From contig JADHVZ010000006.1 in NCBI GenBank assembly GCA_016783745.1, positions 3,397-67,396 of the forward strand: 64,000 nucleotides of DNA, read 5' to 3'. This stretch comes from Candidatus Omnitrophota bacterium. GTDB lineage: Bacteria > Omnitrophota > Gorgyraeia > JAHIPI01. The notes under the pieces are model-generated. The model ran no database searches. It was not told where the DNA came from and saw only the letters and a list, made by a program, of their open reading frames with translations. Made by a program: the position numbers and the translations under genes. How positions within the stretch are numbered: position 1 is the first letter of the stretch; each line of letters starts with the position of its first letter. Of the stretch, positions 7,225 through 56,125 are shown piece by piece.

Positions 7225-9873
7225 TCAGCTCAGATCCTTTAAATTCTCTTCCAGGCGTTTTAAGGTGCTTTTAAAACCGGTTTCCGATAGCTTTGTCTTT
7301 TCGATAATATCCTTAGGCGCCCTTTCCATAAAGTTCTTATTCTTAAGCTTCTGCGCTATCACCTCAAGCCTTTTGACCACTTCCTGTTTTTGCTTAATAA
7401 GCCTGCTTTTCTCTTTTTCAAAATCTATTATGCCTTCAAGCGGTATATATACCTCCGCCATCTGCGGCGCTGCGTAAGCGGAGTGGGACGGCTTCGCGAT
7501 GCCCTTTCCTATCTCTAATGCTTTGACCCGGCATAACTTCTTTATGTATGCCTCTAGATCCTTTAAGATATTGCCGTGCTTCGGCTGCTTATATGACAAA
7601 ACCACTTTTATCTCGGTCCTCTGGTCTATGTTCCATTCGGAGCGTATATTGCGGATGGCCGTTATAACCTGTATGACGCCCTCAATATCATCTTCCAGTT
7701 CCTTAGAGATGAACTGCTTCTGTAGATGAGGCCATGAGCTTATCATGATGGGATCTCTCTCGTGCGGCAGATTCTGCCACAATTCTTCCGTAATAAACGG
7801 CATAAAAGGATGCAGCACCCTGAGAGACTTCTCAAGCACCTTATAGAGTATTATCTGGGTAGACTTCTCACCGGCTGAAAGTTTTGTAAACTCGATGTAC
7901 CAGTCGCAGAACTCATGCCAGAAAAATTCATATATCCGTGAGGCGGCATCATTAAAGCGGTAATTATCGAGACTTTCTGTGATATCTTTAAGCGCGGAGA
8001 AAAATCTGCTGAGTATCCACTTATCCACGGTCTTAAGGCTTGCAGCCTTGGCGTATACGCAAAGATCCACATTTATGTCATTCTGAAAAGTCGTAAGGAT
8101 ATAACGTGTGGCGTTCCATATCTTATTGGCAAAATTTCTGCCTATCTCGAATCTCCTGGGAGAAAGAAAGACATCCTGGCCTGTGGCCGTTATGGATATT
8201 ATGCTGAACCTGAGCGCGTCCGCGCCGAAAGAGCCTATTATCTCAAGCGGGTCTATTACATTGCCGAGTGATTTTGACATCTTTGTGCCTGTATCATCCC
8301 GGACCGTGCCATGGATATACACATCTTTAAAAGGTATTTCCCCTGTGAACTCGAATCCGGCCATGATCATCCGGGCGACCCAGAAAAATATTATCTCCTG
8401 CGCCGTTACCAGCACATTCGTCGGATAGAAATATTCAAATTCCGTCTTATTCTTCTCATCGCCTTCACTGAACGGCCAGTAAAAAGTAGCAAAAGGCCAT
8501 AGCCATGAAGAAAACCATGTATCAAGTACGTCCGGATCCTGCTCAAGCGCTTCAGAGTTACATTTCGGGCATTTATCCGGCCTTGCATTAGAAACTATTA
8601 CCTCCTCACACTGCGTGCAGTAATATACCGGGATCCTGTGCCCCCACCATATCTGCCGTGATATGCACCAGTCATGGATGTTTTCCATCCAGTTAAGATA
8701 GACCTTTGTCCATCTGGCGGGATAGAATTTTATTTTTCCTTTTTTGACTGCGTCTATGGCCGGTTTGGCAAGCGGCTTCATCTTCACAAACCACTGTTTA
8801 GATAGATACGGCTCGATTATTGTGTGGCAGCGGTAGCAATGTCCGGCTGAAAGCTGATGCGGCTCTACTTTTTCAAGAAGGTTCTTTTCTTTGAGGTCCT
8901 TCAGTATCACCTTTCTAGCCTCAAACCTGTCCATATCCTTATATTCGCCCGCGTTTTCGTTCATGCGGCCGTCAGGATGCATTACATTGACAAATTCCAG
9001 TCCGTGCTTTTTGCCCATGGCATAGTCGTTGGGATCATGCGCGGGTGTCACCTTGACCGCTCCTGTCCCGAACTTCTTATCTACCATGTCATCGGCGATT
9101 ATCTTGATCTCCCTGTTTATCAAAGGAAGGATAAGCGTTTGCCCGATATATTTTTTATACCTTTTGTCCTTGGGATTTACAGCGACAGCCGTATCCCCCA
9201 GCATGGTCTCCGGCCTGGTAGTCGCGACCATCACATATTTTTTAGCGTCATCCTTAAACGGGTATTTAAAATAATAGAGGCTGCCCTGGAGCTCCTTGCG
9301 CGGGGCCTCTTCATCGGAAAGCGCGGTATGGCACCGCGGACACCAGTTGATTATGTAATTCCCCTGATAGATGAGGCCCTTTCCATGCAGCCTGACAAAA
9401 ACATCTGTGATCACCCTGGAATAGGCGTCGTCCATTGTGAAACGAGTCCTCGACCAGTCGCATGAAGCGCCAAGCTTTTTAAGCTGGTGTATTATGGTAG
9501 AGCCGTATTCTTCTTTCCACTTCCATACGCGCTCGATAAATTCTTCACGGCCCAGATCCTGTCGCCTGAGATTCTCCTTGGCAATATCCTTTTCGACGGC
9601 ATTCTGTGTGGCTATGCCGGCATGGTCAGTGCCCGGCATCCATAAGGACTCGTGGCCCTGCATTCTCTTAAAACGTATGAGGATATCCTGGATGGTATTA
9701 TTGAGGGCATGGCCCATGTGCAGGATGCCGGTGATATTAGGCGGAGGGATGACTATGGAATACGGCTTTTTCTTGCCGTCTTCCTTCGCGGCGAATAGAT
9801 TCCTCTGTTCCCAGGATTTGTAGACACGATCCTCTACGGTTCTGGGGTCGTATGCTTTTGGAAGTTCTTTCAT
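7225..9873 (-). CDS. valS: Valine--tRNA ligase
   Basis: 882 aa; HIGH (PPPNITGILHMGHALN) and KMSKS (GTKMSKSLGNVIDP) motifs; C-terminal coiled coil. Confidence 0.95.
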   Translation of the reverse strand: MKELPKAYDPRTVEDRVYKSWEQRNLFAAKEDGKKKPYSIVIPPPNITGILHMGHALNNTIQDILIRFKRMQGHESLWMPGTDHAGIATQNAVEKDIAKENLRRQDLGREEFIERVWKWKEEYGSTIIHQLKKLGASCDWSRTRFTMDDAYSRVITDVFVRLHGKGLIYQGNYIINWCPRCHTALSDEEAPRKELQGSLYYFKYPFKDDAKKYVMVATTRPETMLGDTAVAVNPKDKRYKKYIGQTLILPLINREIKIIADDMVDKKFGTGAVKVTPAHDPNDYAMGKKHGLEFVNVMHPDGRMNENAGEYKDMDRFEARKVILKDLKEKNLLEKVEPHQLSAGHCYRCHTIIEPYLSKQWFVKMKPLAKPAIDAVKKGKIKFYPARWTKVYLNWMENIHDWCISRQIWWGHRIPVYYCTQCEEVIVSNARPDKCPKCNSEALEQDPDVLDTWFSSWLWPFATFYWPFSEGDEKNKTEFEYFYPTNVLVTAQEIIFFWVARMIMAGFEFTGEIPFKDVYIHGTVRDDTGTKMSKSLGNVIDPLEIIGSFGADALRFSIISITATGQDVFLSPRRFEIGRNFANKIWNATRYILTTFQNDINVDLCVYAKAASLKTVDKWILSRFFSALKDITESLDNYRFNDAASRIYEFFWHEFCDWYIEFTKLSAGEKSTQIILYKVLEKSLRVLHPFMPFITEELWQNLPHERDPIMISSWPHLQKQFISKELEDDIEGVIQVITAIRNIRSEWNIDQRTEIKVVLSYKQPKHGNILKDLEAYIKKLCRVKALEIGKGIAKPSHSAYAAPQMAEVYIPLEGIIDFEKEKSRLIKQKQEVVKRLEVIAQKLKNKNFMERAPKDIIEKTKLSETGFKSTLKRLEENLKDLS

Positions 9874-12968: not shown

Positions 12969-14571
12969 GTTTATACCTCTTCTTCTTTTTCAGATATACG
13001 TATACCTCAAACAACATGTACACTGTTATTATCAAAAGCGCGCATGATATGATCCCTAAAAGAACATCCCCGTTCTTTAGATATTTAGGTATGTTATATA
13101 ACAACGCTCCGAACGTGGTCAATAGCATAAATATACAGGGAAGAATCGTATATATTATTCTTGCGTTTCTGCTTAAAAGCCATACGGTGATCACCAGTAA
13201 AGCAAGTGCCGCTACAAGCTGGTTAGCGGCGCCGAATACCGGCCATATCTTCGTCCAGTTTCCGCTAAGGCCAAGCCAGCCGCTTAAAGCTACTACTATA
13301 AAAGTAGCCAGATACCTGTTCTTTATGCCAAAAAGTTCGTGCGTAAGATAACGGCCTATCCTTGTGGCGGTATCAAGTGTCGTCAAAATAAAAGCATTCA
13401 AGATCACTATAGCCAAAAACCCGCCCATACCCGCCAGCATCGATCCTGTAAGCGCGCCGTAACCGTGCCCGAAAGCTCCTACCGGCCCTGAACCGCCCTT
13501 ACCCAAAAAAGCGGTGAGCGCCGCCTGGTTTTTTAGCCCGGCCGCGACTACCAGGACCGCCATGACCGCGACAGCGGCCTCGACGATCATTCCGCCGTAG
13601 CTTATCCCTCTGGCGTGCGTCTCACTTGACAGCTGTTTCGAAGTAGTCCCGCTCGCCACAAATGAATGAAACCCTGATATCGCCCCGCAGGCAACAGTTA
13701 CAAAAAGCATCGGCCAAAGTGAATTATCAACTAAATGAAAACCGTTGAAAAACGGAAGCGCTATATTGGGACGGGAAACTATAATGCCCAGATAGCCGAA
13801 AATCACGCCAAATATCAGAAGAAACGCCGAAAGATAATCGCGAGGCTGAAGAAGTATCTGTACAGGCGTTATCGAAGCGATAAAAGAATATATAAGCAGC
13901 AAGCAACCCCAGAAAACTTGAGGGTTTTCAGCTTCGATCCTGACCGGGAACTTATTACCGATGATGATCAATAAGGCCATAACCCCCACCCCAAGCAATG
14001 TGACCGCCGCGTGATTCGCCTTCACGTTATAAAGCAAATACCCCACGAGTATCGCGACAGCTATCAGGCCTATTGAGGGAATCACTATCTTCGGTTCATA
14101 GGCGAGGGTCTTCGCGCATAGATAGACAAACACCGCTATCACCAGTATAAGCGTCAGCCATACAAATGAAGCGAAAAAGAGTTTTGCCCTGCGCGAGACC
14201 ACATTCTCAGCTATATCCGAGATCGAGCGTCCGCTGTTTTTTATAGACAATACCAAAGAGCCGAAATCGTGAACACCGCCGATAAAAATAGACCCTATTA
14301 TGATCCAGATGATAGTGGGCCCCCACCCCCAAATGGATAAAGCAAGTATGGGCCCTATAATGGGAGCGGCGCCTGAAATACTCGAAAAATGATGCCCGAA
14401 AAGCACCAGCGGGTTCTTTGCCGGCACATAATCAACGCCGTCATAGTTTTTATGCGCCGGCGTCACCGCTTTTGCGGATATACCGAATAGCTTGACGAAT
14501 TTCTTACTGTAAAAAATGTAACCCAGGGTCAAAAAGACTATCGCTATGGCAGCAACCAAAAGCGAATTCAT
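12961..14571 (-). CDS. cstA: Carbon starvation protein A family transporter
   Basis: 536 aa polytopic membrane protein with CstA motifs (LFGHHFSSISGAAPIIGP, VTVACGAISGFHSFVASGTTSKQL). Confidence 0.85.
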   Translation of the reverse strand: MNSLLVAAIAIVFLTLGYIFYSKKFVKLFGISAKAVTPAHKNYDGVDYVPAKNPLVLFGHHFSSISGAAPIIGPILALSIWGWGPTIIWIIIGSIFIGGVHDFGSLVLSIKNSGRSISDIAENVVSRRAKLFFASFVWLTLILVIAVFVYLCAKTLAYEPKIVIPSIGLIAVAILVGYLLYNVKANHAAVTLLGVGVMALLIIIGNKFPVRIEAENPQVFWGCLLLIYSFIASITPVQILLQPRDYLSAFLLIFGVIFGYLGIIVSRPNIALPFFNGFHLVDNSLWPMLFVTVACGAISGFHSFVASGTTSKQLSSETHARGISYGGMIVEAAVAVMAVLVVAAGLKNQAALTAFLGKGGSGPVGAFGHGYGALTGSMLAGMGGFLAIVILNAFILTTLDTATRIGRYLTHELFGIKNRYLATFIVVALSGWLGLSGNWTKIWPVFGAANQLVAALALLVITVWLLSRNARIIYTILPCIFMLLTTFGALLYNIPKYLKNGDVLLGIISCALLIITVYMLFEVYVYLKKKKRYKHA

Positions 14572-18169: not shown

Positions 18170-18208
18170 ATCAAACCTTTCGTATTAGGAAAAATCGTGG
18201 GACACAAC

Positions 18209-18345
18209 GTCACCAGGTCACCCGTCACCAGGTCACCAAAATCCTATGTGAAATATCTTGGGTTTCAAAGTCACCCGTCACCAGGTCACAAGGGGTTTTC
18301 TTATCCTTTTCTCGTGTGACCTTGTGACGTGTGACCTTGTGACCC
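18209..18345. repeat. REP-like dyad element, 'gtcacc' family: tandem gtcacc(a/c)ggtcacc words plus a palindrome gtcacccgtcaccaggtcacaagg-[loop ggttttcttatccttttctc]-gtgtgaccttgtgacgtgtgaccttgtgac
   Basis: Seen directly; related copy with the same loop word (ggggttttcttat) at 28907-28970. Confidence 0.8.
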
Positions 18346-18362
18346 TTGTATTTTCCAAGAAC

Positions 18363-19508: not shown

Positions 19509-19540
19509 AAAAAGTCCCCGGTTTTATCCGGGGACTTTTT
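19509..19540. terminator. Bidirectional intrinsic terminator: AAAAA-gtccccgg-ttttat-ccggggac-TTTTT
   Basis: 8-bp GC-rich stem flanked by A5 and T5; 35 nt downstream of the minus-strand ORF ending at 19575. Confidence 0.7.
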
Positions 19541-20741: not shown

Positions 20742-22073
20742 TTATTTTTTATTCTTCTTCCGTTTTATTCTTATCCTTATCGGCACACCTGTAAGCCCCA
20801 GTTCATTCCTTAAAATATTTTTGATGCACTCTATATAATCACCTGAGACATTGCGCGGGTCATTGACCGATACCTCAAAAGTAGGCGGGGCCCCATCCTC
20901 CTGCTTCATGCCCTCTATCTTTATTAATTTACCGGAACGCACAAGCGGCACCTTATCGCTCATCTCTATTAGCTGCCGGATCCGCTTTATTTCATCGTCG
21001 GGAAACCTGGCCGTGATGTTTCTGAAGACCAGGCTTATAAGGGAGAATACATCCTCTAAGTTAAGGCCTGTTTTACAGGAGGTAAACAATACCGGTATGC
21101 CCCTGAGATATTTCATCTTTCTTACAAGCGCGTCCTGGTATTTAGCCATCTCAAATCCTGATATAAGGTCCCACTTATTGACGATGAGAAAAGAACCCTT
21201 CCCTGCCTCTTCCACAGAGCTTAGTATGCTCATATCGTCTCTTGTCAGCCCGTCATAAGCGTCTATCATGATCAAACTTATATCGCTTCGATCTATACTT
21301 TCTTTCGCCCTTAACATCCCGTAAACATCTACGGCGTCGTGTACCTTTCTTTTGTGGCGCATACCGGCCGTATCGACAATAATATAGTCGGTGTTCTGTC
21401 TCTTAAGATGTATGTCTATAGAATCCCTGGTAGTACCCGGTTCCTCGTGGACGATCACCCTCTCCTCATTTATTATCTTATTCACGAATGATGATTTTCC
21501 GACATTCGGCCTGCCGACTATCGCCACTCTTATGCCGGTCTCCGCGGGGCTTTCGTCGATCGACTGAGGCTTGATCCTTCCCGCGATGCTCTCGAGCAGC
21601 GTCGATATCCCGATATTATGGATCGCGGAAACAGGGTAAAGCTCGCCTATGCCGAAGGAATAAAATTCGCTTACATTCTCCTCCAATTTCTCATTATCCA
21701 CTTTATTCACGACGAGCACGATGTCCCCGCCGGATCTTCTTAAGACGGACAATATCTCCTCGTCCAGATTCGTTATTCCGTCGGTCACATCGCAGACAAA
21801 AAGTATTATATCAGCGCTTTCCAGCGCTATCTCGATCTGCCTTTTGATCATGCCGGAAATATGGTCGACGCGCCCAAAATCCAGTCCGCCGGTATCCACC
21901 AGCTCAAAGCTATATCCTTCCTTTTTAACTAAAGCGCTCACCCTGTCCCTGGTGGTGCCGGATTTCTTTTCGGTTATCGAGTGCCGCCGTCCGACGATCC
22001 TGTTAAACAGCGTCGATTTACCGACGTTAGGCCTTCCTATGATCGCGATCCTACTTATGCTTGACTGTTTCAT
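20742..22073 (-). CDS. der: Ribosome-associated GTPase Der/EngA (tandem GTPase domains + KH-like domain)
   Basis: 443 aa; two G domains (GRPNVGKST each with DTAG/NKxD). Confidence 0.9.
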   Translation of the reverse strand: MKQSSISRIAIIGRPNVGKSTLFNRIVGRRHSITEKKSGTTRDRVSALVKKEGYSFELVDTGGLDFGRVDHISGMIKRQIEIALESADIILFVCDVTDGITNLDEEILSVLRRSGGDIVLVVNKVDNEKLEENVSEFYSFGIGELYPVSAIHNIGISTLLESIAGRIKPQSIDESPAETGIRVAIVGRPNVGKSSFVNKIINEERVIVHEEPGTTRDSIDIHLKRQNTDYIIVDTAGMRHKRKVHDAVDVYGMLRAKESIDRSDISLIMIDAYDGLTRDDMSILSSVEEAGKGSFLIVNKWDLISGFEMAKYQDALVRKMKYLRGIPVLFTSCKTGLNLEDVFSLISLVFRNITARFPDDEIKRIRQLIEMSDKVPLVRSGKLIKIEGMKQEDGAPPTFEVSVNDPRNVSGDYIECIKNILRNELGLTGVPIRIRIKRKKNKK

Positions 22074-22611
22074 TTAACATCCTGTTTGTACGCACCAGAT
22101 AATAGATGCCTGAGGCAACCGTGAACAAGGCCGCCGCGCTCCATATGATATTAGAATAATTGAACCTTAAAAGAACGGCCAGGATCGTCATCATCTGCAA
22201 AAAAGTAGTGAATTTTCCGATCAGGCTTGGTTTGAATTCTATGGACCCGAACATCATCAATATCGCTGAAGCTCCGGTAAGTATGAATAAGTCTCTTGTT
22301 AAAACTATTATGAGGACCCAGGGCGGTATCCTGAGATGGCCGGGCACGGTGGATACAAATGTAAGGGTTATAAAGCTTACTACGATCAGGAATTTGTCGG
22401 CGAGCGGATCTAAAATGGCTCCCAGCCGACTCGCCTGTCCGTACCGGCGCGCTATATATCCGTCCACTGCGTCGGTAATAATAGCCGAGATAAAAATAGC
22501 GATAGGCAGGCCGGCCAGCACAGCATTATCCGCGCGGTAATACAGCATGGATAATACAAATAACGGCGTCAGCAACAACCTTATAAAAGAGAATTTATTG
22601 GCAAGATTCAT
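22051..22611 (-). CDS. pgsA: CDP-diacylglycerol--glycerol-3-phosphate 3-phosphatidyltransferase (CDP-alcohol phosphatidyltransferase family)
   Basis: 186 aa; DAVDGYIARRYGQASRLGAILDPLADK = D-G-x2-A-R-x8-G-x3-D-x3-D motif. Confidence 0.85.
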   Translation of the reverse strand: MNLANKFSFIRLLLTPLFVLSMLYYRADNAVLAGLPIAIFISAIITDAVDGYIARRYGQASRLGAILDPLADKFLIVVSFITLTFVSTVPGHLRIPPWVLIIVLTRDLFILTGASAILMMFGSIEFKPSLIGKFTTFLQMMTILAVLLRFNYSNIIWSAAALFTVASGIYYLVRTNRMLNETVKHK

Positions 22612-22655
22612 AATTTGAAGCTACTATATCACATGGCTATATCAAAGTCAATCAT

Positions 22656-22767
22656 TTGGGGACGTGTGAGAAGGGGACGGTCCAAAAGGGGACAGGTCAC
22701 TTAGATAGTATGGTGTGTCCCCTTTTGACACGTCCCCAAATGACACGTCCCCTTCTCACACGTCCCC
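22656..22767. repeat. REP-like dyad element, 'ggggacg' family: ggggacgtgtgagaaggggacggtccaaaaggggacaggtcac-[loop]-gtgtccccttttgacacgtccccaaatgacacgtccccttctcacacgtcccc
   Basis: ~110-bp imperfect palindrome, each arm carrying three ggggac words; abuts the stop codon of the truncated ABC ATPase. Confidence 0.8.
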
Positions 22768-22773
22768 TTTTTG

Positions 22774-23280
22774 CTACGGTTCATCCAGAAGAAGGATGTC
22801 CGCCTTCTGGATCAATGAAGCTGATATCATGATCTTCTGGTGTTCCCCGGAGCTCAGCGTGCCCATATCCCGCTCTTTAAAACGGCTCATATGAACGGCT
22901 TCCAGGGCCTCATCGACTTCGCGCTCATCTTCCGCGGTCACCATGGAAAAAGGATTGAGGTACGGATACTTGCTCAAAAGGATAAATTCATGAACTTTAA
23001 AAGGGTACGCTCTCGCGTCAGGCTGGGGAACATAACTCATCTCTTTGGCGAGGTCTTTCTGCTTAAAATGCCTTACTTCGGTTCCATTGATCTTTATACC
23101 GCCGGTCCCGCCGGTAAGGATCCTTATCATATTCTTTAGAAGCGTGGTCTTTCCCGCCCCGTTAGGGCCGACTATTGTCAGATATTCGCCCTTCTTCACG
23201 GAAAATCCTACGGAGCGCAGGATATCGCCGTTGCCGTAAGAGTATGAGAAATTTTCTACTTCTATAGCGAATTTTTCCAT
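22774..23280 (-). pseudogene. ABC transporter ATP-binding protein (iron-siderophore/cobalamin FepC/BtuD-like), C-terminally truncated: reading frame stops immediately after Walker B (..ILLLDEP*)
   Basis: 168 aa with Walker A GPNGAGKTT, Q-loop, signature LSSGEHQK, Walker B ILLLDEP then TAG; lacks D-loop/H-loop (~60-80 aa); stop lies 7 bp from palindromic element 22656-22767. Confidence 0.55.
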
Positions 23281-23286
23281 GTGGGA

Positions 23287-24144
23287 TCAGAGGACCTGCT
23301 CGATATCTCTCAATATCAAGGTAAAGCGGGGGCCGGGGATGGCTATGTAATCGCCGTTCAAAACGTGAATATCTCCGCTTTTAACGGCATTTACCTTATC
23401 GATAGTTTTCCATTCCTCAATTAATCCAGGCTTGTCCTCGTCAGGGATATGCGGCGCCATCTCCAGTATTATATCGGGATTCATCCTCATTATAGACTCT
23501 ACGGACAAGGTGGGATAACTTATATCATTATCGGAAGATACGTTTTCACAGCCCAGGATATCCAAAAGGTCGCTATAGAAGGTCTCTTTCCCCGCTACAT
23601 ATACATTTTCAAGCGAGCCTTTGTTTCTACTGACCGCTATCATTATCCGTTTAGCCGTTCTAAGCTCGGCTCTTTCCCGGAATGACTTTATACTATCCCG
23701 TTTATTATTCACTATCTCCCGCGCTTTATTTTTCACGCCGCATTTTAAGCCTATTTCTTCTATCGTAGTCAGTATACTGTCGACAGTTTGCGTGTTTACC
23801 GTAAAATGATCGATTTCCGTGGCATCAAAAAGTTTTTTTATCTCATCGTCATATTCGGACGGCGAGATCACCAGGTCCGGCTTCAGGAATATAATGGATT
23901 CGAAGTTAGTGTTCAGATATCCCCCTACCCTGAACTTATCATTCACATCCGGAGGATAACTGCAGAAGTCAGTCACTCCCACAACTTTATCCCCGAGTCC
24001 CAGCTCATAAAGTATCTCGGTTATGCTGGGAGACAAAGACACTATACGGTTATAGGTCATTTTTTGATCTTGCGCAAGGCAGGGCCGATAAAGAAATGTC
24101 AGGCAAAAAATTAGAATAAGCGTTTTTTTCATAAAAAATCTCAT
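23287..24144 (-). CDS. ABC transporter periplasmic substrate-binding protein, BtuF/FecB-like (cobalamin/iron-siderophore class)
   Basis: 285 aa with signal peptide; RIVSLSPSITEILYELGLGDKVVGVTDFCSYPP typical of BtuF-type binding proteins. Confidence 0.8.
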   Translation of the reverse strand: MRFFMKKTLILIFCLTFLYRPCLAQDQKMTYNRIVSLSPSITEILYELGLGDKVVGVTDFCSYPPDVNDKFRVGGYLNTNFESIIFLKPDLVISPSEYDDEIKKLFDATEIDHFTVNTQTVDSILTTIEEIGLKCGVKNKAREIVNNKRDSIKSFRERAELRTAKRIMIAVSRNKGSLENVYVAGKETFYSDLLDILGCENVSSDNDISYPTLSVESIMRMNPDIILEMAPHIPDEDKPGLIEEWKTIDKVNAVKSGDIHVLNGDYIAIPGPRFTLILRDIEQVL

Positions 24145-24253
24145 AGCTTCAACTCTTCTTTCGATAAATAATTATACCATAAAATGAGGTTAAAACGTAA
24201 CTTTTCCTCCGCTGTCTGCACTACGTTGATACCCGGTATATCTTTAAAAACGG

Positions 24254-24365
24254 GAGGGGACAGACACTTTTTTTGAAGAGTTGGGACAGACACTTTTTGT
24301 AGCTATATAAGTAACCTCAAAAAGTGTCTGTCCCTGACAACGCCGCAAAAAAAGTGTCTGTCCCC
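24254..24365. repeat. REP-like dyad element, 'gggacagacac' family: two gggacagacacttttt words on each arm around loop tagctatataagtaacctc
   Basis: Left arm ggggacagacactttttttgaagagttgggacagacacttttt; right arm is its reverse complement with a different inter-word spacer. Confidence 0.85.
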
Positions 24366-24371
24366 TTCATG

Positions 24372-24950
24372 CTATTTAAGCTTCTGGATGCGCCAGGGAG
24401 GCCACCAAATGAACATGGCCCTTCCTATAACATTCTCTTGCGGCACAAACCCCCAATACCGGGAGTCCTTGGAGCTGGCGCTGTTATCGCCCAGGACAAA
24501 ATAATCGTCTTCGGGGACATCGACAGGCCAACCCGACCTTCCGTAATAACCTTTATTATAATAGTGTATATTTTCGACCTCCGGCGGGCCATCCAGAGAT
24601 TTTCCGTTTATGATTATATCTCCGTTAGAGATCTCGACCGCTTCTCCGCCTTCGCCGACCAGCCGTTTTATAAAATCCTTCTTCTCATCCTCGGGATATT
24701 TAAAGACGATAATGTCTCCTCTCATGGGCTTCCTTAATCCCGGCAGCTTGATATCTGTAAACGGGATCTTAGGCCCATAAAGAAGTTTATTGACCATTAT
24801 CTTATCGCCTTCTTTTAATGTGGGCCTCATCGACCCGGAAGGGATCCTGAAAGCCTGAATAAAAAAAGCCCTTATGAATAACGCGAGAACAACCGCTATT
24901 ACAATTGATTCGACCCATTCCCTGATTATAGCTTTAGTGCTATGTCTCAT
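24372..24950 (-). CDS. lepB: Signal peptidase I (start placed at internal ATG 24950, directly after lepA stop)
   Basis: Catalytic Ser box IPSGSMRPTL and Lys box; the longer ORF (to 25082) would overlap lepA by 130 nt; MRHSTKAII start gives classic lepA-lepB coupling. Confidence 0.8.
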   Translation of the reverse strand: MRHSTKAIIREWVESIVIAVVLALFIRAFFIQAFRIPSGSMRPTLKEGDKIMVNKLLYGPKIPFTDIKLPGLRKPMRGDIIVFKYPEDEKKDFIKRLVGEGGEAVEISNGDIIINGKSLDGPPEVENIHYYNKGYYGRSGWPVDVPEDDYFVLGDNSASSKDSRYWGFVPQENVIGRAMFIWWPPWRIQKLK

Positions 24951-26746: not shown

Positions 26747-26771
26747 AATTCTGATTTTTGAGTCAATTTGA

Positions 26772-26820
26772 GGTTACGAGACGTTACGAGAGGTTACGAG
26801 AAGTTACGAAAGGTTACAGA
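26772..26820. repeat. Tandem decamer array (ggttacgaga cgttacgaga ggttacgaga agttacgaaa ggttacagaa), 'gttacgag' family
   Basis: Five direct 10-bp units filling the lepA/phosphohexomutase spacer; same word at 48704-48734. Confidence 0.85.
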
Positions 26821-26827
26821 ATCCCTC

Positions 26828-28889: not shown

Positions 28890-28906
28890 TGTTTTCTCCG
28901 TAATTA

Positions 28907-28970
28907 CAAGGTCACCAGGTCACCAGGGGTTTTCTTATACTGGTGACGTGTGACTTTGTGACCTTGTGAC
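28907..28970. repeat. REP-like dyad element, 'gtcacc' family (aaggtcaccaggtcaccagg-ggttttcttata-ctggtgacgtgtgactttgtgaccttgtgac)
   Basis: Shares arm words and loop word with 18209-18345. Confidence 0.8.
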
Positions 28971-28999
28971 TCATGTATTTTAACATTATAATTCATTCT

Positions 29000-33693: not shown

Positions 33694-33785
33694 TGGTTAC
33701 GGTTCTCGGTTTTCGGTTTTCGGTTCTCGGTTCTCGGTTGCAGGATTCTTCCCCCTACCCCCTACTACCTACCCCCTACTACCTA
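33694..33785. repeat. Composite tandem array filling the whole trpB-trpA spacer: (ggtt[c/t]tc)x5-6 followed by (taccccctactacc)x2
   Basis: Seen directly; the ggttttc/ggttctc heptamer is shared with elements at 53052-53125 and 56047-56124. Confidence 0.85.
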
Positions 33786-34988: not shown

Positions 34989-35055
34989 GGCCGTAGGTTT
35001 ATAGGTTATATAGAAACTCACTTAACCGTACACCGTAAACCGAAAACCGTACACC
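34989..35055. repeat. Low-complexity element of the 'ccgtaaacc/ccgtacacc' family (aaccgtacaccgtaaaccgaaaaccgtacacc), preceded by taggtttataggttata
   Basis: Same words, in inverted-repeat form, at 56047-56124. Confidence 0.7.
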
Positions 35056-37442
35056 TAAATAATGACCAGGCTCTGCTTCTTCCCTGTTAATGGGAAAGAC
35101 AGCTTCAGTATACCGTCTTTGTGCTTAAAATTTATCTCGCTTCCGTCAAGTGAGACACTGTACGGCTTTCGTATTTCTATCAGTATCTCGCAATGACCGC
35201 CCGCGCTTCCGTGCAGGGCAAGCCTCAATTCTCTGTCCGTGCATGAAGCCTTAAGTATCTCAGCCGTGGAATACCTGATCTTCGCCCGCCTGGAAACAGG
35301 CACATTGAGCGGAAGAACATAAGAGCTCCTGTTGGGCATAAGAAGTTTATTTTCCTGCGGTATCGTGGCGGACTTATTTAGACCCGGGATCCGGAAGTTC
35401 AAAGTCACTTCATGCGGTTCGTCGTTGAAATTCGACACAAACAGGAATCCGTATTTTTTATTAGACCTCATCACAGCATGAACATCATTCACTGATGTCT
35501 TTATGCAACGCGGCAGATTAAGGATCTGCATAAAATGGTCTATCAATCCTATTTGATAATCGAGAGTATGCTTCACTGCGAACCCGAGCAAAAGCAATTT
35601 GCCTTTCTTTATCTTCTTAAGGATACCGCACGGTTTTCTGTCTCTGGTCCGCGCTACTACCCGTCTCTTTTTAGACTCAAATACCTTGATATCACCTTCT
35701 ATCAAATAATCTTTTCCGGTGACAAATACCAGATTATCATTTACCGTCTCGCCTATACTGACATCAAATTCTTTTAACAAAGACTCTTCTCTTAAGAGCC
35801 CCATATTTTTATTAGGCGCTGTGGGATTCATGATAAGCGTTCCGCCTCTTTTGACGTACTCGGCTAATTTGAGTTGTGTCGCCTGATCCATATAGTCCAT
35901 TGAAAAGACCCACATGGCGGGAATTTCCTGCAGATCCCTTATCTTCGCTCTTTCAATATCCACCAGATTATAATTATAACCATTGATCATCAGCAGCCTT
36001 GCTATTCCGTCAAAGAAGAAATTATCTCTCGCAAGAGCCATCTGGTCTATGACTGAACCTTTGAGATAACCGGTCTCATAATAAGGCGCATAGAGGCCCA
36101 TTGCAAAATCATAATTTTTCTTTGTATCCGCTATCTGACTTCCGAAGGTCTTCACGAGATCACCGACATCCTCCATAGGCTTGATCTTGGAGTTCTTTTT
36201 TCCCTTACTGTCTATGGGAGCCTGCCATTCATGGTAGGTTCCTCTAAAACCCAATCCCGGCGGATTCAGCCCCCCGCAGAACATATACGCGTTAAGGCCG
36301 TTCAGGCCGTGCCCGATTGAGTATCTCATAAGTAAATTGATATCATTAGGATATATTCTGGGCCGGTCATTCATGCCTCCTACCTGGGCCTCCAAACAGA
36401 CCCTGGGTGCGGTTTTATCGCCTATCATATTCAATCCCTCGGTCATGAGGATAGCGTCATGAAAATTTTCAAAGTTGAGATTTCTCATCTGATACGCGCC
36501 GCCAAAAATAATATGCGGCGTATATTTTATAAAATCCCTGTATTGAAGAACGGTCATCAGCCCCTGATTACCTCTGGCGCATATGTTATAGTCCCAGAAC
36601 ATCGGGATATTGGCTACGAAAGGAAGGTCGATTTTCGCGCCCTTCGCGCGCTTGGATAAAGAATTGTAGTAGCGGGCGTAAAAATCTCTATAGAAATGTA
36701 CCCAGTCCCAGCATCTTCTTACGCCTTCTTCATCCACGTCACCTTTCGGCTGCGGGATCTCCTTAAAGCTCGTATGATTCGTGTAATACCTGTCGTTAAG
36801 GGCGGATAGCTCACCGCCATAAAGCGCCTTCAGGTATTCTCCGTACATCTCGGTCGTAGCCTTATTATAATCCGCGTCACCCATGACCCAATTCATCATG
36901 CCGATCTCGTTATCCAGCTGCACCATTATCACCGGCCCGCCTTTTGTAAAAGAGTTCTTATGGATTATCGGCAGGATCTTCGAATACCACCCGGATACGC
37001 GCTCCTGAAAAACAGGATGCATATAAGAGACCATGGCCTCGTGCGGAACATTCGATCCTTTTCTGTTTTTCGCGCGCGCTTCCTGGTAATTTTCCAGAAA
37101 CCAGGGCGGGGTGCCTTCACCCTTTATCTCCGCGTTAGAAGTAGGGCCTATCCTGGCTATAAGATTAAAGCCGGCGTTTTTGACAAGCTTGATAAAATAT
37201 ATAAGATCCTTTTGAGGAGAAGTCTTACCGGTGAAATCAAACTGGCCTTCTTCATGCTCGTGCCAGGCCCACGGTATGTAAGTGCTTATAGTATTTAATC
37301 CCGTTTCCCTGGCCTTCCTCAGCCTATCCACCCATTTATCCTTCGGTATCCTGAAATAATGGATCTCGCCCGAATAGAGGAAAAAAGGCTCATTATTCAA
37401 CAGGATCTTACCGTCTTTCAATTCGATCTTATTCCTGCCCAT
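35055..37442 (-). CDS. Glycoside hydrolase family 35-like beta-galactosidase
   Basis: 795 aa; N-terminal GEIHYFRIP...GLNTISTYIPWAWHE...FDF...GP...AE...PPWFL and acid/base VQLDNEIG match the GH35 catalytic TIM barrel. Confidence 0.75.
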   Translation of the reverse strand: MGRNKIELKDGKILLNNEPFFLYSGEIHYFRIPKDKWVDRLRKARETGLNTISTYIPWAWHEHEEGQFDFTGKTSPQKDLIYFIKLVKNAGFNLIARIGPTSNAEIKGEGTPPWFLENYQEARAKNRKGSNVPHEAMVSYMHPVFQERVSGWYSKILPIIHKNSFTKGGPVIMVQLDNEIGMMNWVMGDADYNKATTEMYGEYLKALYGGELSALNDRYYTNHTSFKEIPQPKGDVDEEGVRRCWDWVHFYRDFYARYYNSLSKRAKGAKIDLPFVANIPMFWDYNICARGNQGLMTVLQYRDFIKYTPHIIFGGAYQMRNLNFENFHDAILMTEGLNMIGDKTAPRVCLEAQVGGMNDRPRIYPNDINLLMRYSIGHGLNGLNAYMFCGGLNPPGLGFRGTYHEWQAPIDSKGKKNSKIKPMEDVGDLVKTFGSQIADTKKNYDFAMGLYAPYYETGYLKGSVIDQMALARDNFFFDGIARLLMINGYNYNLVDIERAKIRDLQEIPAMWVFSMDYMDQATQLKLAEYVKRGGTLIMNPTAPNKNMGLLREESLLKEFDVSIGETVNDNLVFVTGKDYLIEGDIKVFESKKRRVVARTRDRKPCGILKKIKKGKLLLLGFAVKHTLDYQIGLIDHFMQILNLPRCIKTSVNDVHAVMRSNKKYGFLFVSNFNDEPHEVTLNFRIPGLNKSATIPQENKLLMPNRSSYVLPLNVPVSRRAKIRYSTAEILKASCTDRELRLALHGSAGGHCEILIEIRKPYSVSLDGSEINFKHKDGILKLSFPLTGKKQSLVII

Positions 37443-51110: not shown

Positions 51111-52577
51111 TTACGCTTCCTCTATGGCCTTTATCAGCGCCATTGCCTTATTCAACGTCTCCTGATATTCCTTATCCGGATCGGAATCAGCCACTATTCC
51201 CGCGCCCGCCTGGATATACGCCTTGTTCTTCTTGACCAGGATAGTCCTTATAGTGATACAACTGTCTATATTCCCGGAAAAACTGAAATAGCCGACACAT
51301 CCTGAATAAGTCCCGCGCTTCAGATTTTCGAGCTCATCAATGATCTCCATAGCTCTTATCTTAGGGGCGCCTGTCACAGTGCCCGCCGGAAACGATGCCC
51401 TTACCACATCATATATGTTACTGTCCTTTGACAATCTGCCCGTGACATCGCTGACTATGTGCATGACGTGGGAATACTTCTCCACCTTCATCAGTTCGCC
51501 TACGCGCACACTGTTAAACCTTGATACCCTTCCAACATCATTCCGGCCAAGATCCACTAGCATGATATGCTCGGCCCTCTCTTTTGGGTCCCCCAGCAGC
51601 TCTTTCTCAAGCCTGCTATCCTCGCTCTTGTTTCTTCCTCTCGGCCTTGTACCCGCGATCGGCCTTAACTCTATTTTGCCGTCTTCACATCTTACCATTA
51701 TCTCAGGGGATGAACCGATAAGCTTGATGTCTTTGAATCTTAGATAATACATATAAGGCGAAGGATTTATAGAACGCAGCTGTCTGTATATACTGAAGGG
51801 GTCTTTTTTTCCAAGATCGGCTTCCAGTCTTTGAGATAGAACTACCTGTATGATGTCCCCGTTCTTTATATACTCCTTTCCTTTTCTTACGATATCGCCG
51901 AAAGAATTTTTTGTAAAATTCGATCTTATCTTAATTTTGCGGTTTACGGTTTGCGGCTTACGGTTTACTTTCGTGTTCTTCAGAAGCGTTTTTTCTATCT
52001 TAGCTATCTTCTTCAGGGCCTCGCTGTACGCCGCTCGCGGGTTGCGCTTCACATGGACGTTTGAGACTATCTTTATCTTATGCATAATATGGTCGAATAT
52101 CAGAAGCGTGTCGGTAAGTACAAAAATGCAGTCCGGCACTTTAAGATCGTCCGGATTCCTGTCAGGCAGTCTTTCAAAAAACCGAACCATATCATAACCG
52201 ATATAGCCGACAAGGCCTCCGCAAAAACGGGGCAGCCCCTTGATACTTACAAACTTAAACTGAGACATCAGATTTTTTATTTCTTCAAGCGGATCCGAGT
52301 CCGCCTTATAGCGCCTGAGCTTCTCACCCTCCCTTATCTCCACATCCATTCCCTTGCTCCTGAATACCAGTGAAGGATTTGACCCTAAAAAAGAGTACCG
52401 CGCTATTTTTTCTTCACCCTCTACGGACTCAAGAAGATATGAATAATCTCCGGAGTCTATTTTTAAAAAAGAAGATACCGGCGTCTCCAGGTCAGCGCTT
52501 ATTTCCTTATATACGGGAATGACGTTCCCTTTTTTTGAGAGACCGATGAATTCTTTTTTACTCGGATATATCATCAA
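51111..52577 (-). CDS. trpE: Anthranilate synthase component I
   Basis: 488 aa; chorismate-binding C-terminal domain ([10 protein letters not shown]). Confidence 0.9.
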
Positions 52578-53051: not shown

Positions 53052-53125
<74 letters not shown>

Positions 53126-53159
53126 AACATGAATTTGCCAAATAAGCTTACTGTTAGTA

Positions 53160-53287
53160 AATCACAAATAACAAATTACAAATAACAAACAAATAACAAG
53201 CACCAAATTCCAAACACATTGTTTTGAATTTTGAATTTGAGATTTTGAATTTGTTTGTGATTTGTTATTTGAAATTTGTTATTTCCG
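53160..53287. repeat. AT-rich dyad element built from 'caaataacaa' words and inverted ttgttatttg words
   Basis: cacaaataacaaattacaaataacaaacaaataacaag...ttgttttgaattttgaatttgagattttgaatttgtttgtgatttgttatttgaaatttgttattt. Confidence 0.75.
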
Positions 53288-56014: not shown

Positions 56015-56046
56015 GGATTGACCTTTCTTGACATATTTTTTAGGTT

Positions 56047-56124
56047 AACGGTGTACGGTTTTCGGTTTACGGTTTTCAAAATCCCACGGTTGTTCCGTAA
56101 ACCGTACACCGAAAACCGTAAACC
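56047..56124. repeat. Dyad element of the 'ccgtaaacc/ggttttc' family: aacggtgtacggttttcggtttacggttttc-[aaaatcccacggttgtt]-ccgtaaaccgtacaccgaaaaccgtaaacc
   Basis: Near-perfect ~30-bp inverted arms in hisD-hisB spacer. Confidence 0.85.
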
Positions 56125-56125
56125 T

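Follow-up and report, generated by a model that had tools for sequence, protein, structure and literature searches.

The stretch of DNA analysed here (the window) is 64 kb of a Candidatus Omnitrophica population genome, and the absences reported below hold for these 64 kb. Between lepB and pgsA it contains an intact gene for a BtuF-like periplasmic binding protein and, downstream of it, a gene for an ATP-binding cassette (ABC) ATPase that stops directly after its Walker B motif, next to one of two long palindromic elements. A sequence-only reading of this DNA had taken the pair for an importer operon being eroded. We compared the locus with the syntenic intact operons of relatives (L001, L002/L003, L214 and L216). 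The window genes at the locus all lie on the minus strand, and breakpoints are described in gene orientation; dph-like is the name used here for a Diphthami_syn_2-like gene. From upstream to downstream, the locus consists of:

24372-24950, minus strand: lepB (signal peptidase I), the conserved upstream neighbour (Pfam Peptidase_S26; 80% identical to L001 LepB)
24255-24366, no strand assigned: palindrome 2, 112 bp, nested, with GGGACAGACACTTTTT twice on each arm
24214-24251, minus strand: btuB remnant, codons about 75-88 (DNA aligns to L001 5323-5357)
24190-24213, minus strand: btuB 3' remnant, SGGKVTF and stop (aligns to L001 7015-7039; heptapeptide identical)
24171-24179, minus strand: extended -10 element TGGTATAAT upstream of btuF (read from the sequence; kept in L001)
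23287-24144, minus strand: intact btuF-like periplasmic binding protein gene (Pfam, ortholog and PDB matches)
22774-23280, minus strand: truncated btuD/fhuC-type ABC ATPase gene, 168 aa, here btuD' (Pfam ABC_tran, ortholog alignment)
22708-22773, minus strand: btuC-proximal arm of palindrome 1, CAAAAA followed by four 15-bp units, abutting the ATPase TAG
22652-22707, minus strand: distal inverted arm and loop of palindrome 1 (inverted-repeat detection, DNA fold)
22623-22651, minus strand: surviving last codons of a dph-like gene (22629-22651) and pgsA promoter (L001 homology, promoter scan)
22051-22611, minus strand: pgsA-like CDP-alcohol phosphatidyltransferase gene, the conserved downstream neighbour (Pfam CDP-OH_P_transf; 72% identical to L001)

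We found that the 168-aa open reading frame (ORF) aligns with the Pfam ABC_tran profile from position 1 to 135 of its 137 (E = 3.4e-29). Its translation contains Walker A (GPNGAGKT, residues 38-45), the Q-loop (Q86), the signature motif (LSSGE, 142-146) and Walker B (ILLLDE, 162-167), then P168 and TAG (22774-22776), just as the sequence-only reading had described. Alignment to full-length homologs confirmed the loss of the C terminus: the closest ortholog (P0002, 262 aa) is 76% identical across all 168 aa and continues beyond the break with LLLDEP-TTFLD (D-loop) and, farther on, VTH200NL (H-loop). The next 23 homologs are 63-76% identical over all 168 residues and 260-264 aa long, almost all of them 262 aa, and those at 70-76% identity all have 261-262 aa; a length of 168 aa is confined to the window's own cluster (public entry 'MAG: Candidatus Omnitrophica bacterium ABC transporter ATP-binding protein', P0001). 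The missing part is 94 aa, including the D-loop and H-loop, rather than the 60-80 aa first estimated. DNA homology to L001 stops exactly after btuD codon 168. We searched the window by tblastn (to E = 10) with the L001 TonB-dependent receptor, ATPase C terminus, FecCD permease and dph-like protein as queries; ATPase residues 169-262 left no trace in any frame, whether as an H-loop remnant downstream or as a continuation of the ORF.

The 262-aa ortholog matches FhuC (7lb8, 5e-35) and HmuV (4g1u, 1e-32). The window protein is of this type II importer ATPase class (BtuD/FhuC/HmuV), with Walker A, the Q-loop, the signature and Walker B present and the D-loop and H-loop absent. The D-loop and H-loop, with its switch histidine, follow Walker B and are needed for dimer communication and ATP hydrolysis. 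We know of no activity for an ABC ATPase that lacks the D-loop, the H-loop and a permease. No FecCD/BtuC permease was found in the window by tblastn, as the sequence-only reading had stated. Judging by what is generally known of ABC transporters, the 168-aa ATPase is incapable of powering B12 import, because the D-loop, the H-loop histidine, the permease partner (in the window) and the outer-membrane receptor have all been lost. We conclude that btuD' is a pseudogene fragment made by deletion.

The intact operons tell what has been lost. Gene order in the relatives is lepA, lepB, TonB-dependent receptor, binding protein, ATPase, FecCD permease, dph-like, pgsA, (der), plsY, gpsA, with receptors of 646-651 aa, binding proteins of 280-284 aa, ATPases of 262 aa and FecCD permeases of 335-337 aa; the permease gene lies directly downstream of the ATPase gene in L001, L002, L213, L214, L215 and L216. 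In L001 and L002 a cobalamin riboswitch (Rfam RF00174, 90-93 bits) lies between lepB and the receptor gene. The window has no RF00174 match at the gathering threshold, and none at E <= 1 in 22500-24500. Because syntenic relatives carry RF00174 and the full gene set, the ancestral unit is, as judged from this comparison, a riboswitch-controlled btuB-btuF-btuD-btuC system. The synteny with intact relatives also bears out the idea of an importer operon being eroded. Gene content in the neighbourhood is fluid: L214 and L002 are without der between pgsA and plsY (L214 6057-6143; L002 11203-11229). In a more distant relative, L213 (1-9564), btuB-btuF-btuD-btuC is bordered on both sides by Diphthami_syn_2-like genes and adjoins cobC-, cobU-, cobT- and cobS-like genes, which suggests that the dph-like gene lost from the window is functionally tied to cobalamin salvage.

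Relative to L001, the window has lost ~4.3 kb in three to four deletions. On the left the erosion is bounded by the lepB stop codon (24372), up to which homology extends. Gap 1 (599 bp; L001 4724-5322) starts there and runs through btuB codon 74; in L001 this interval holds the promoter, the riboswitch, two terminator hairpins and btuB codons 1-74, and in the window palindrome 2 has taken its place. Homology resumes at ~24251, at codon ~75, with the first btuB remnant (71% identity over 14 aa by tblastn, in syntenic position). Gap 2 removes 1,657 bp inside btuB (codons 89 to about 640) and joins the flanks out of frame at 24213/24214, with a 2-bp microhomology (AC), no filler and no repeat. 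Gap 3 corresponds to 2,083 bp in L001, from btuD codon 169 through btuC to the end of the dph-like gene, with homology resuming at TTGACTTTGA (window 22651) in the last dph-like codons. Its right-hand breakpoint is the -35 hexamer of a promoter-like site for pgsA (TTGACT-17-TATAGT with a TG extension; 10 of 12 matches in the promoter scan). No remnants of the receptor, the ATPase C terminus, the permease or the dph-like gene were found elsewhere in the window (tblastn, E = 10). Thus, the erosion is larger than the sequence-only reading saw: the riboswitch, its promoter and nearly all of btuB are also gone, and palindrome 2 marks that scar. L214 has independently lost its dph-like gene at a junction with no palindrome, retaining the same tail.

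Palindrome 1 (22652-22773; 110-125 bp) begins six bases past the ATPase TAG, so that a palindrome does lie at the end of the ATPase gene, as had been reported. Its 15-bp units all start with GGGGAC; the plus strand carries three of them and the minus strand four. Complementarity between the arms is 81-93%, and the element folds, as single-stranded DNA, at -43.3 kcal/mol, compared to -17.4 +/- 2.9 for shuffled sequences (z = -8.9; 0 of 200 shuffles as stable); its 21-mer core was counted 3 times against an expectation of 0. The units of the btuC-proximal arm are, in order, GGGGACGTGTGAGAA, GGGGACGTGTCATTT, GGGGACGTGTCAAAA and GGGGACACACCATAC; the plus-strand units of the distal arm, which stands in place of the deleted dph-like gene, are GGGGACGTGTGAGAA, GGGGACGGTCCAAAA and GGGGACAGGTCACTT.

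The btuC-proximal arm has a counterpart in the relatives. In L216, the spacer between btuC and the dph-like gene carries a direct tandem array after the FecCD stop (AGGGACGTGCCACTT three times and AGGGACACTCCACTT; 7498-7559; period 15 and 3.5 copies by Tandem Repeats Finder, TRF), and the same spacer in L001 carries two such units (9808-9835). The arm aligns with the L216 array unit for unit, including the distinctive last unit, with a local alignment score of 42 (shuffles 14.7 +/- 2.3, maximum 23). The array is absent from L002 and L214, and the tree from pooled identities is ((window,(L001,L216)),(L002,L214)). From the alignment we take the btuC-proximal arm to be orthologous to the array downstream of btuC in L001 and L216. 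Since the array occurs in the window, L001 and L216, it was present in their common ancestor, and so it predates the deletions as a resident spacer element. In L001 and L216 the array is followed by the dph-like gene, with no counterpart of the inverted arm. We conclude that palindrome 1 is the old spacer element downstream of btuC and not an insertion into the ATPase gene. The suggestion that the repeat had replaced the deleted remainder of the gene therefore stands as a description of its position; the element did not arrive with the deletion, given the orthology of the arm. Because the array predates the deletions as a resident element, gap 3 would represent two losses flanking it, one taking btuD from codon 169 onward and all of btuC (~1.3 kb), the other the dph-like gene (~0.75 kb). 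Just before the GGGAC array, L001 (9794-9808) and L216 (7472-7499) have a four-codon mini-ORF, ATGGCGCCCTTTTAG (MAPF*), which in L216 duplicates the last btuC codons (...LAPF*).

Palindrome 2 starts 6 nt after the lepB stop. Its GGGACAGACACTTTTT is an exact 16-mer present in four copies (0.03 expected), and its fold has an energy of -42.5 kcal/mol (z = -12.7). The only Rfam matches at E <= 1 in 22500-24500 were sub-threshold eukaryotic miRNA hairpin models, which we rejected as generic hairpins.

The binding protein gene is intact, as the sequence-only reading had it. Its product matches Pfam Peripla_BP_2 over 1-232 of 235 positions (E = 7e-32), is 65% identical over its full length to the L001 ortholog, and has a hydrophobic N terminus (MKKTLILIFCLTFLYRPCLAQ, read by eye from the sequence); translation probably begins at the ATG at 24132, which yields the 281-aa protein called in other assemblies. 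It matches vitamin B12-binding proteins in the PDB (5ysc, 1e-21; 5m34, 3e-17; 1n2z, 1.5e-14), and its top PDB match, 4m7o, is annotated as iron-binding. Because the orthologous operons carry RF00174 riboswitches, the substrate of the locus would, on this indirect ground, be cobalamin and not an iron-siderophore; the btu cluster of L213 is linked to cobU/cobT/cobS. The extended -10 element TGGTATAAT is conserved in the btuB-btuF spacer of L001, which has the same TGTGGTATAAT, and is probably an internal promoter for btuF-btuD.

We looked for relaxed constraint on the two retained genes with Tajima relative-rate tests (two ingroup and two outgroup genomes) and found no significant acceleration. 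For btuF there were 27-35 window-unique and 20-22 relative-unique changes (P = 0.085-0.39); for btuD' there were 8-13 and 14-20, respectively (not significant). Pooled control genes gave 77-112 in the window and 67-100 in the relatives, with P = 0.28-0.94 in three comparisons and P = 0.009 in one of the four (window 112, L001 76). Neither btuF nor btuD' has a frameshift or an internal stop. Either the deletions are recent on the window branch, or some constraint remains. Since the retained fragments are free of frameshifts and of rate acceleration, the deletions appear young compared with the split from the nearest relatives sampled. A scan of metagenome contigs with PgsA returned distant relatives only (<=62% identity), none of them with the locus in an intermediate state, and a search with the binding protein yielded nothing between 100% and 65% identity, so that the deletions cannot be dated. 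Through HisB, closer relatives are visible in some samples (P0122-P0125, 83-89% identity).

We consider it highly probable that the locus is the remains of a riboswitch-controlled B12 uptake system eroded by deletions, with palindrome 1 a resident element and btuD' a pseudogene. The original order would have been promoter, cobalamin riboswitch, btuB, btuF, btuD, btuC and dph-like gene; btuF would have been kept intact behind its own conserved extended -10 promoter, and the inverted arm of palindrome 1 would now lie at the former place of the dph-like gene. The deletions appear to stop at functional boundaries (the lepB stop, the btuF promoter region, the hairpin elements and the pgsA -35 box), and we infer that selection shaped these limits. 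At the level of genes, the story is one of ordinary reductive loss of a dispensable uptake system. Several points weigh against this account. The 64 kb cover part of the genome, and a second btuCD or another partner for BtuF may lie elsewhere. The smaller number of lineage-specific substitutions in btuD' than in intact orthologs (8-13 vs 14-20) also fits residual constraint. Gain of the inverted arm in the window lineage and its loss in the ancestor of L001 and L216 are equally parsimonious on the tree, and a precursor of palindrome 2, sought in the lepB-btuB spacers of L001, L214 and L216, gave no score above shuffles. The functions assigned to the promoters and hairpins are, finally, putative ones read from the DNA.

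Several other explanations have to be weighed. It is extremely improbable that the locus is an artefact of assembly or sequencing, a mis-join or collapse at repeats in an operon that is really intact. Palindromes and tandem repeats are known trouble spots, and one contig (L006) stops in the middle of palindrome 2, as a hairpin would lead one to expect. However, the exact 168-aa product recurs in five contigs, each of a different assembly. The five assemblies represent four samples, with one sample present in an ENA and in a Logan version, and at least two assembly pipelines produced them. All junctions and both palindromes are base-identical in these contigs; palindrome 1 is read through in 5 of 5 contigs and palindrome 2 in 3. 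Each contig departs from the window at 1-13 positions of its aligned length, and at the btu locus the sole difference among the six assemblies is position 23514, inside btuF (C in the window, A in the other five). Moreover, the repeat units are only 15-16 bp, the junction flanks are unique sequence, and the junction inside btuB contains no repeat. Just as improbable is the proposal that the element was inserted into the 3' end of a complete ATPase gene whose remainder lies downstream, which the breakpoint alignment and the tblastn search refute. The end of the ORF does coincide exactly with the edge of the element, but neither ATPase nor permease sequence lies beyond it. Only 40 bp lie between the element and the pgsA start codon, and most of them are homologous to dph-like 3' sequence and to the short pgsA-proximal spacer instead of btuD; residues 169-262 are untraceable in the window, and 2,083 bp of ancestral sequence are gone. 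We regard it as quite improbable that btuF and btuD' are still under selection, for instance with BtuF acting as a stand-alone periplasmic cobalamin binder or feeding another transporter. The intactness of btuF in six assemblies, the sparing of its extended -10 element and upstream region by two deletions, the lack of significant rate acceleration in btuF and the low number of changes in btuD' speak for this idea. Against it, an ATPase without D-loop, H-loop and permease has no activity known to us, the receptor that would bring B12 into the periplasm is also destroyed, and the absence of acceleration is equally explained by recent deletion. All six assemblies are >99.8% identical, so they carry no population signal by which recency could be separated from residual constraint.

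The palindromes themselves might have made the deletions, by stalling replication or being cleaved, followed by template-switch or fold-back repair that left or extended a palindrome, or as non-autonomous transposons with adjacent deletions. We think this unlikely, although both filler-bearing junctions lie within a few nucleotides of element edges and the contrast between a direct array in the relatives and a palindrome in the window would fit an inverted duplication accompanying loss of the dph-like gene. Elsewhere, too, such elements behave as dispersed, duplicating families and are gained and lost quickly between lineages (see below). In contrast, the deletion inside btuB is a plain microhomology junction without an element, and L214 lost its dph-like gene without any palindrome. 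Five other elements that were compared with relatives (28909-28971, 18203-18349, 56038-56125, 53052-53284 and L002 13518-13631) are not accompanied by gene loss, neither the btu elements nor the L002 hairpin showed target-site duplications, and an arm complementarity of only 81% argues that any fold-back was not recent.

The two btu elements belong to a larger set. We identified at least nine tandem-unit arrays or hairpins in the window, all in spacers between co-directional genes:

18203-18349: array/hairpin, GGTCAC type, tRNA-hom spacer
22652-22773 and 24255-24366: the two btu elements, listed as GGGGAC
26770-26821: array, GAGGTTACGA five times, direct only
28909-28971: array/hairpin, GGTCAC type, M50-rpe spacer
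33700-33785: array/hairpin, CGGTTCT six times, beside a CCCCCTA-type array
34994-35059: array/hairpin, AACCGTA
53052-53123: array/hairpin, CGGTTTT, hisF-hisI spacer
53159-53284: array/hairpin, AAATAAC, hisF-hisI spacer
56038-56125: array/hairpin, ACGGTTT, hisD-hisB spacer

Many co-directional spacers longer than about 60 bp hold a short-unit array (period 7-10), alone or with an inverted copy as a long hairpin, and CGGTTTT, GGTCACC, AAATAAC and GAGGTTACGA recur as unit types. The GGTCAC hairpins at 18255-18355 and 28900-28985 lie 10 kb from each other and share 83% identity, which takes in the loop GGGGTTTTCTTAT and the 3' flank TGTATTTT, so that at least this type forms a dispersed, duplicating family. 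Similar hairpins occur in the relatives L002, L210 and L212. The hisD-hisB spacer (56015-56125 in the window) is 19 bp long and without an element in L209 (2660-2678), holds a CGGTTAA-type hairpin in L210 (5876-6000), and holds in L212 (5923-6000) a hairpin of an unrelated unit (AGGTCACA four times, TGTGAC four times), which points to fast turnover of hairpin sequence at one fixed spacer position. L002 has a 114-bp hairpin of ATCAAAA-type units between the gpsA stop and a tRNA gene (13518-13631), a place that measures only 3-4 bp in L001 and the window, so the hairpin was cleanly gained in one lineage with no deletion. Most tandem-unit hairpins are thus unaccompanied by gene loss; only those at the btu locus sit on deletion scars. 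From these observations the hairpins would constitute a genome-wide repeat class filling co-directional spacers, and, if they act at all, they probably do so as RNA hairpins in termination or transcript stability. Because they usually only expand spacers, and because one btu deletion has no element, the evidence argues that they are passive survivors or colonisers of non-coding DNA and not a general cause of deletions.

Some candidates were set aside. A CGGTTT-like period-7 repeat in trpE (51936-51968) is a coding repeat conserved in relatives; a hisC deletion at the hisD-hisB palindrome was rejected since relatives share the gene order without hisC; and integron attC sites or gene cassettes were rejected in view of the synteny of the flanking genes with relatives and the lack of evident recombination core sites. 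Among the matches listed by a pattern scan of genome contigs for GGGGAC-N9-GGGGAC-N9-GGGGAC, GC-rich 15-bp tandem repeats, mostly of actinomycete and other high-GC genomes, prevailed. The three matches inspected (metagenome-assembled genomes of Omnitrophota, Pirellulales and Verrucomicrobiales) were plain tandem repeats, uninformative on copy number in the window's own genome. Hairpins of array plus inverted array, with other units, also lie beside pgsA homologs in L015 (9519-9643), L058 (9889-9973), L019 (5170-5253), L025 (2718-2785) and L014 (163-240), five distant metagenomic contigs with 37-45% PgsA identity that came from a crude TRF-based screen; the phenomenon may extend well beyond this clade.

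The loci of the relatives resemble type II importers such as E. coli BtuCD-F, FhuBC and HmuUV in their parts (riboswitch, TonB-dependent receptor, Peripla_BP_2 protein, ABC ATPase and FecCD permease), whereas the window, unlike a riboswitch-controlled BtuB-BtuFCD system, keeps only btuF and the first 168 codons of btuD. Like the deletion pseudogenes of reductive evolution, the locus shows several independent deletions, an out-of-frame junction at a 2-bp microhomology, and flanking essential genes and promoters that were spared; unlike the usual ones, it bears long hairpin repeats on two scars and retains fragments without secondary decay. Among known repeats, the cyanobacterial short tandemly repeated repetitive (STRR) sequences are 7-bp tandem units in operon spacers that form hairpins and have no known function, although transcript stability and translational coupling have been proposed (PMC2670836). 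The window elements are like STRR in form (units of 7-8 and 15-16 bp, tandem, intergenic in operons, with hairpin potential), a likeness of form alone; they differ in phylum (Omnitrophota), in unit (GGGGACG..., CGGTTTT, GGTCACC, AAATAAC) and in being mostly an array with an inverted array.

Repetitive extragenic palindromic (REP) sequences and the related BIME and REPIN are extragenic palindromes found mostly downstream of ORFs between co-directional genes, often as inverted pairs and with several families in a genome (PMC3733652; PMC3116915). The window elements resemble them in position and behaviour, and two window copies, of the GGTCAC type, are clear paralogs. A REP, however, has a palindromic unit of 20-40 bp, a GTAG/CGTC tag, many near-identical copies and a cognate RAYT transposase, whereas the window units are short direct repeats and not palindromes. 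The 64 kb contain no near-identical high-copy members, and the core sequence of each btu element is confined to that element, so that in unit structure and in copy identity within the 64 kb the elements fall outside the definition of a REP; a CGTC motif is present in the units of palindrome 1 and absent from palindrome 2. Compared with miniature inverted-repeat transposable elements, which have terminal inverted repeats, target-site duplications and multiple dispersed copies, inverted arms are present, no target-site duplication is seen, and dispersed paralogs were demonstrated only for the GGTCAC type. We found no description in the literature of palindromic or inverted repeats of this kind in Omnitrophota/Omnitrophica. 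It is conceivable, though in our judgement unlikely, that tandem-unit palindromes are an undescribed self-renewing class of intergenic elements of Omnitrophota, born from arrays by fold-back or template-switch inverted duplication, whose edges are preferred deletion endpoints. If so, the btu locus would show both steps, a direct array (L001, L216) against a palindrome (window) and gene loss on both sides, repeat dynamics would help to drive gene loss in the phylum, and the locus would be a natural example of the formation of a REP-like palindrome de novo. It has been left open whether REP-like palindromes continue to arise de novo (PMC3733652), a question that genomes nearer to the window could put to the test at this locus.

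For metabolic reconstruction it matters that this population no longer imports B12 by way of this locus, since the 168-aa fragment is labelled "ABC transporter ATP-binding protein" by annotation pipelines. The locus is a well-documented example of operon decay, with the unusual detail that hairpin repeats typical of the genome's spacers lie on two of the deletion scars. A comparative snapshot is offered by one and the same spacer, which, depending on the lineage, lacks an element, carries a direct array or carries a full palindrome, and palindrome 1 indicates that a spacer element can persist while the coding DNA on both sides is lost. What deserves separate study is the repeat class, together with the finding of an array in some lineages and a palindrome in another. 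Upstream of gpsA we also noted a compact bidirectional intrinsic terminator (19514-19535), AAAAAGTCCCCGG-ATAAAA-CCGGGGACTTTTT. This canonical terminator implies that the genome makes use of short terminators of the ordinary kind as well, which are different from the long tandem-unit hairpins.

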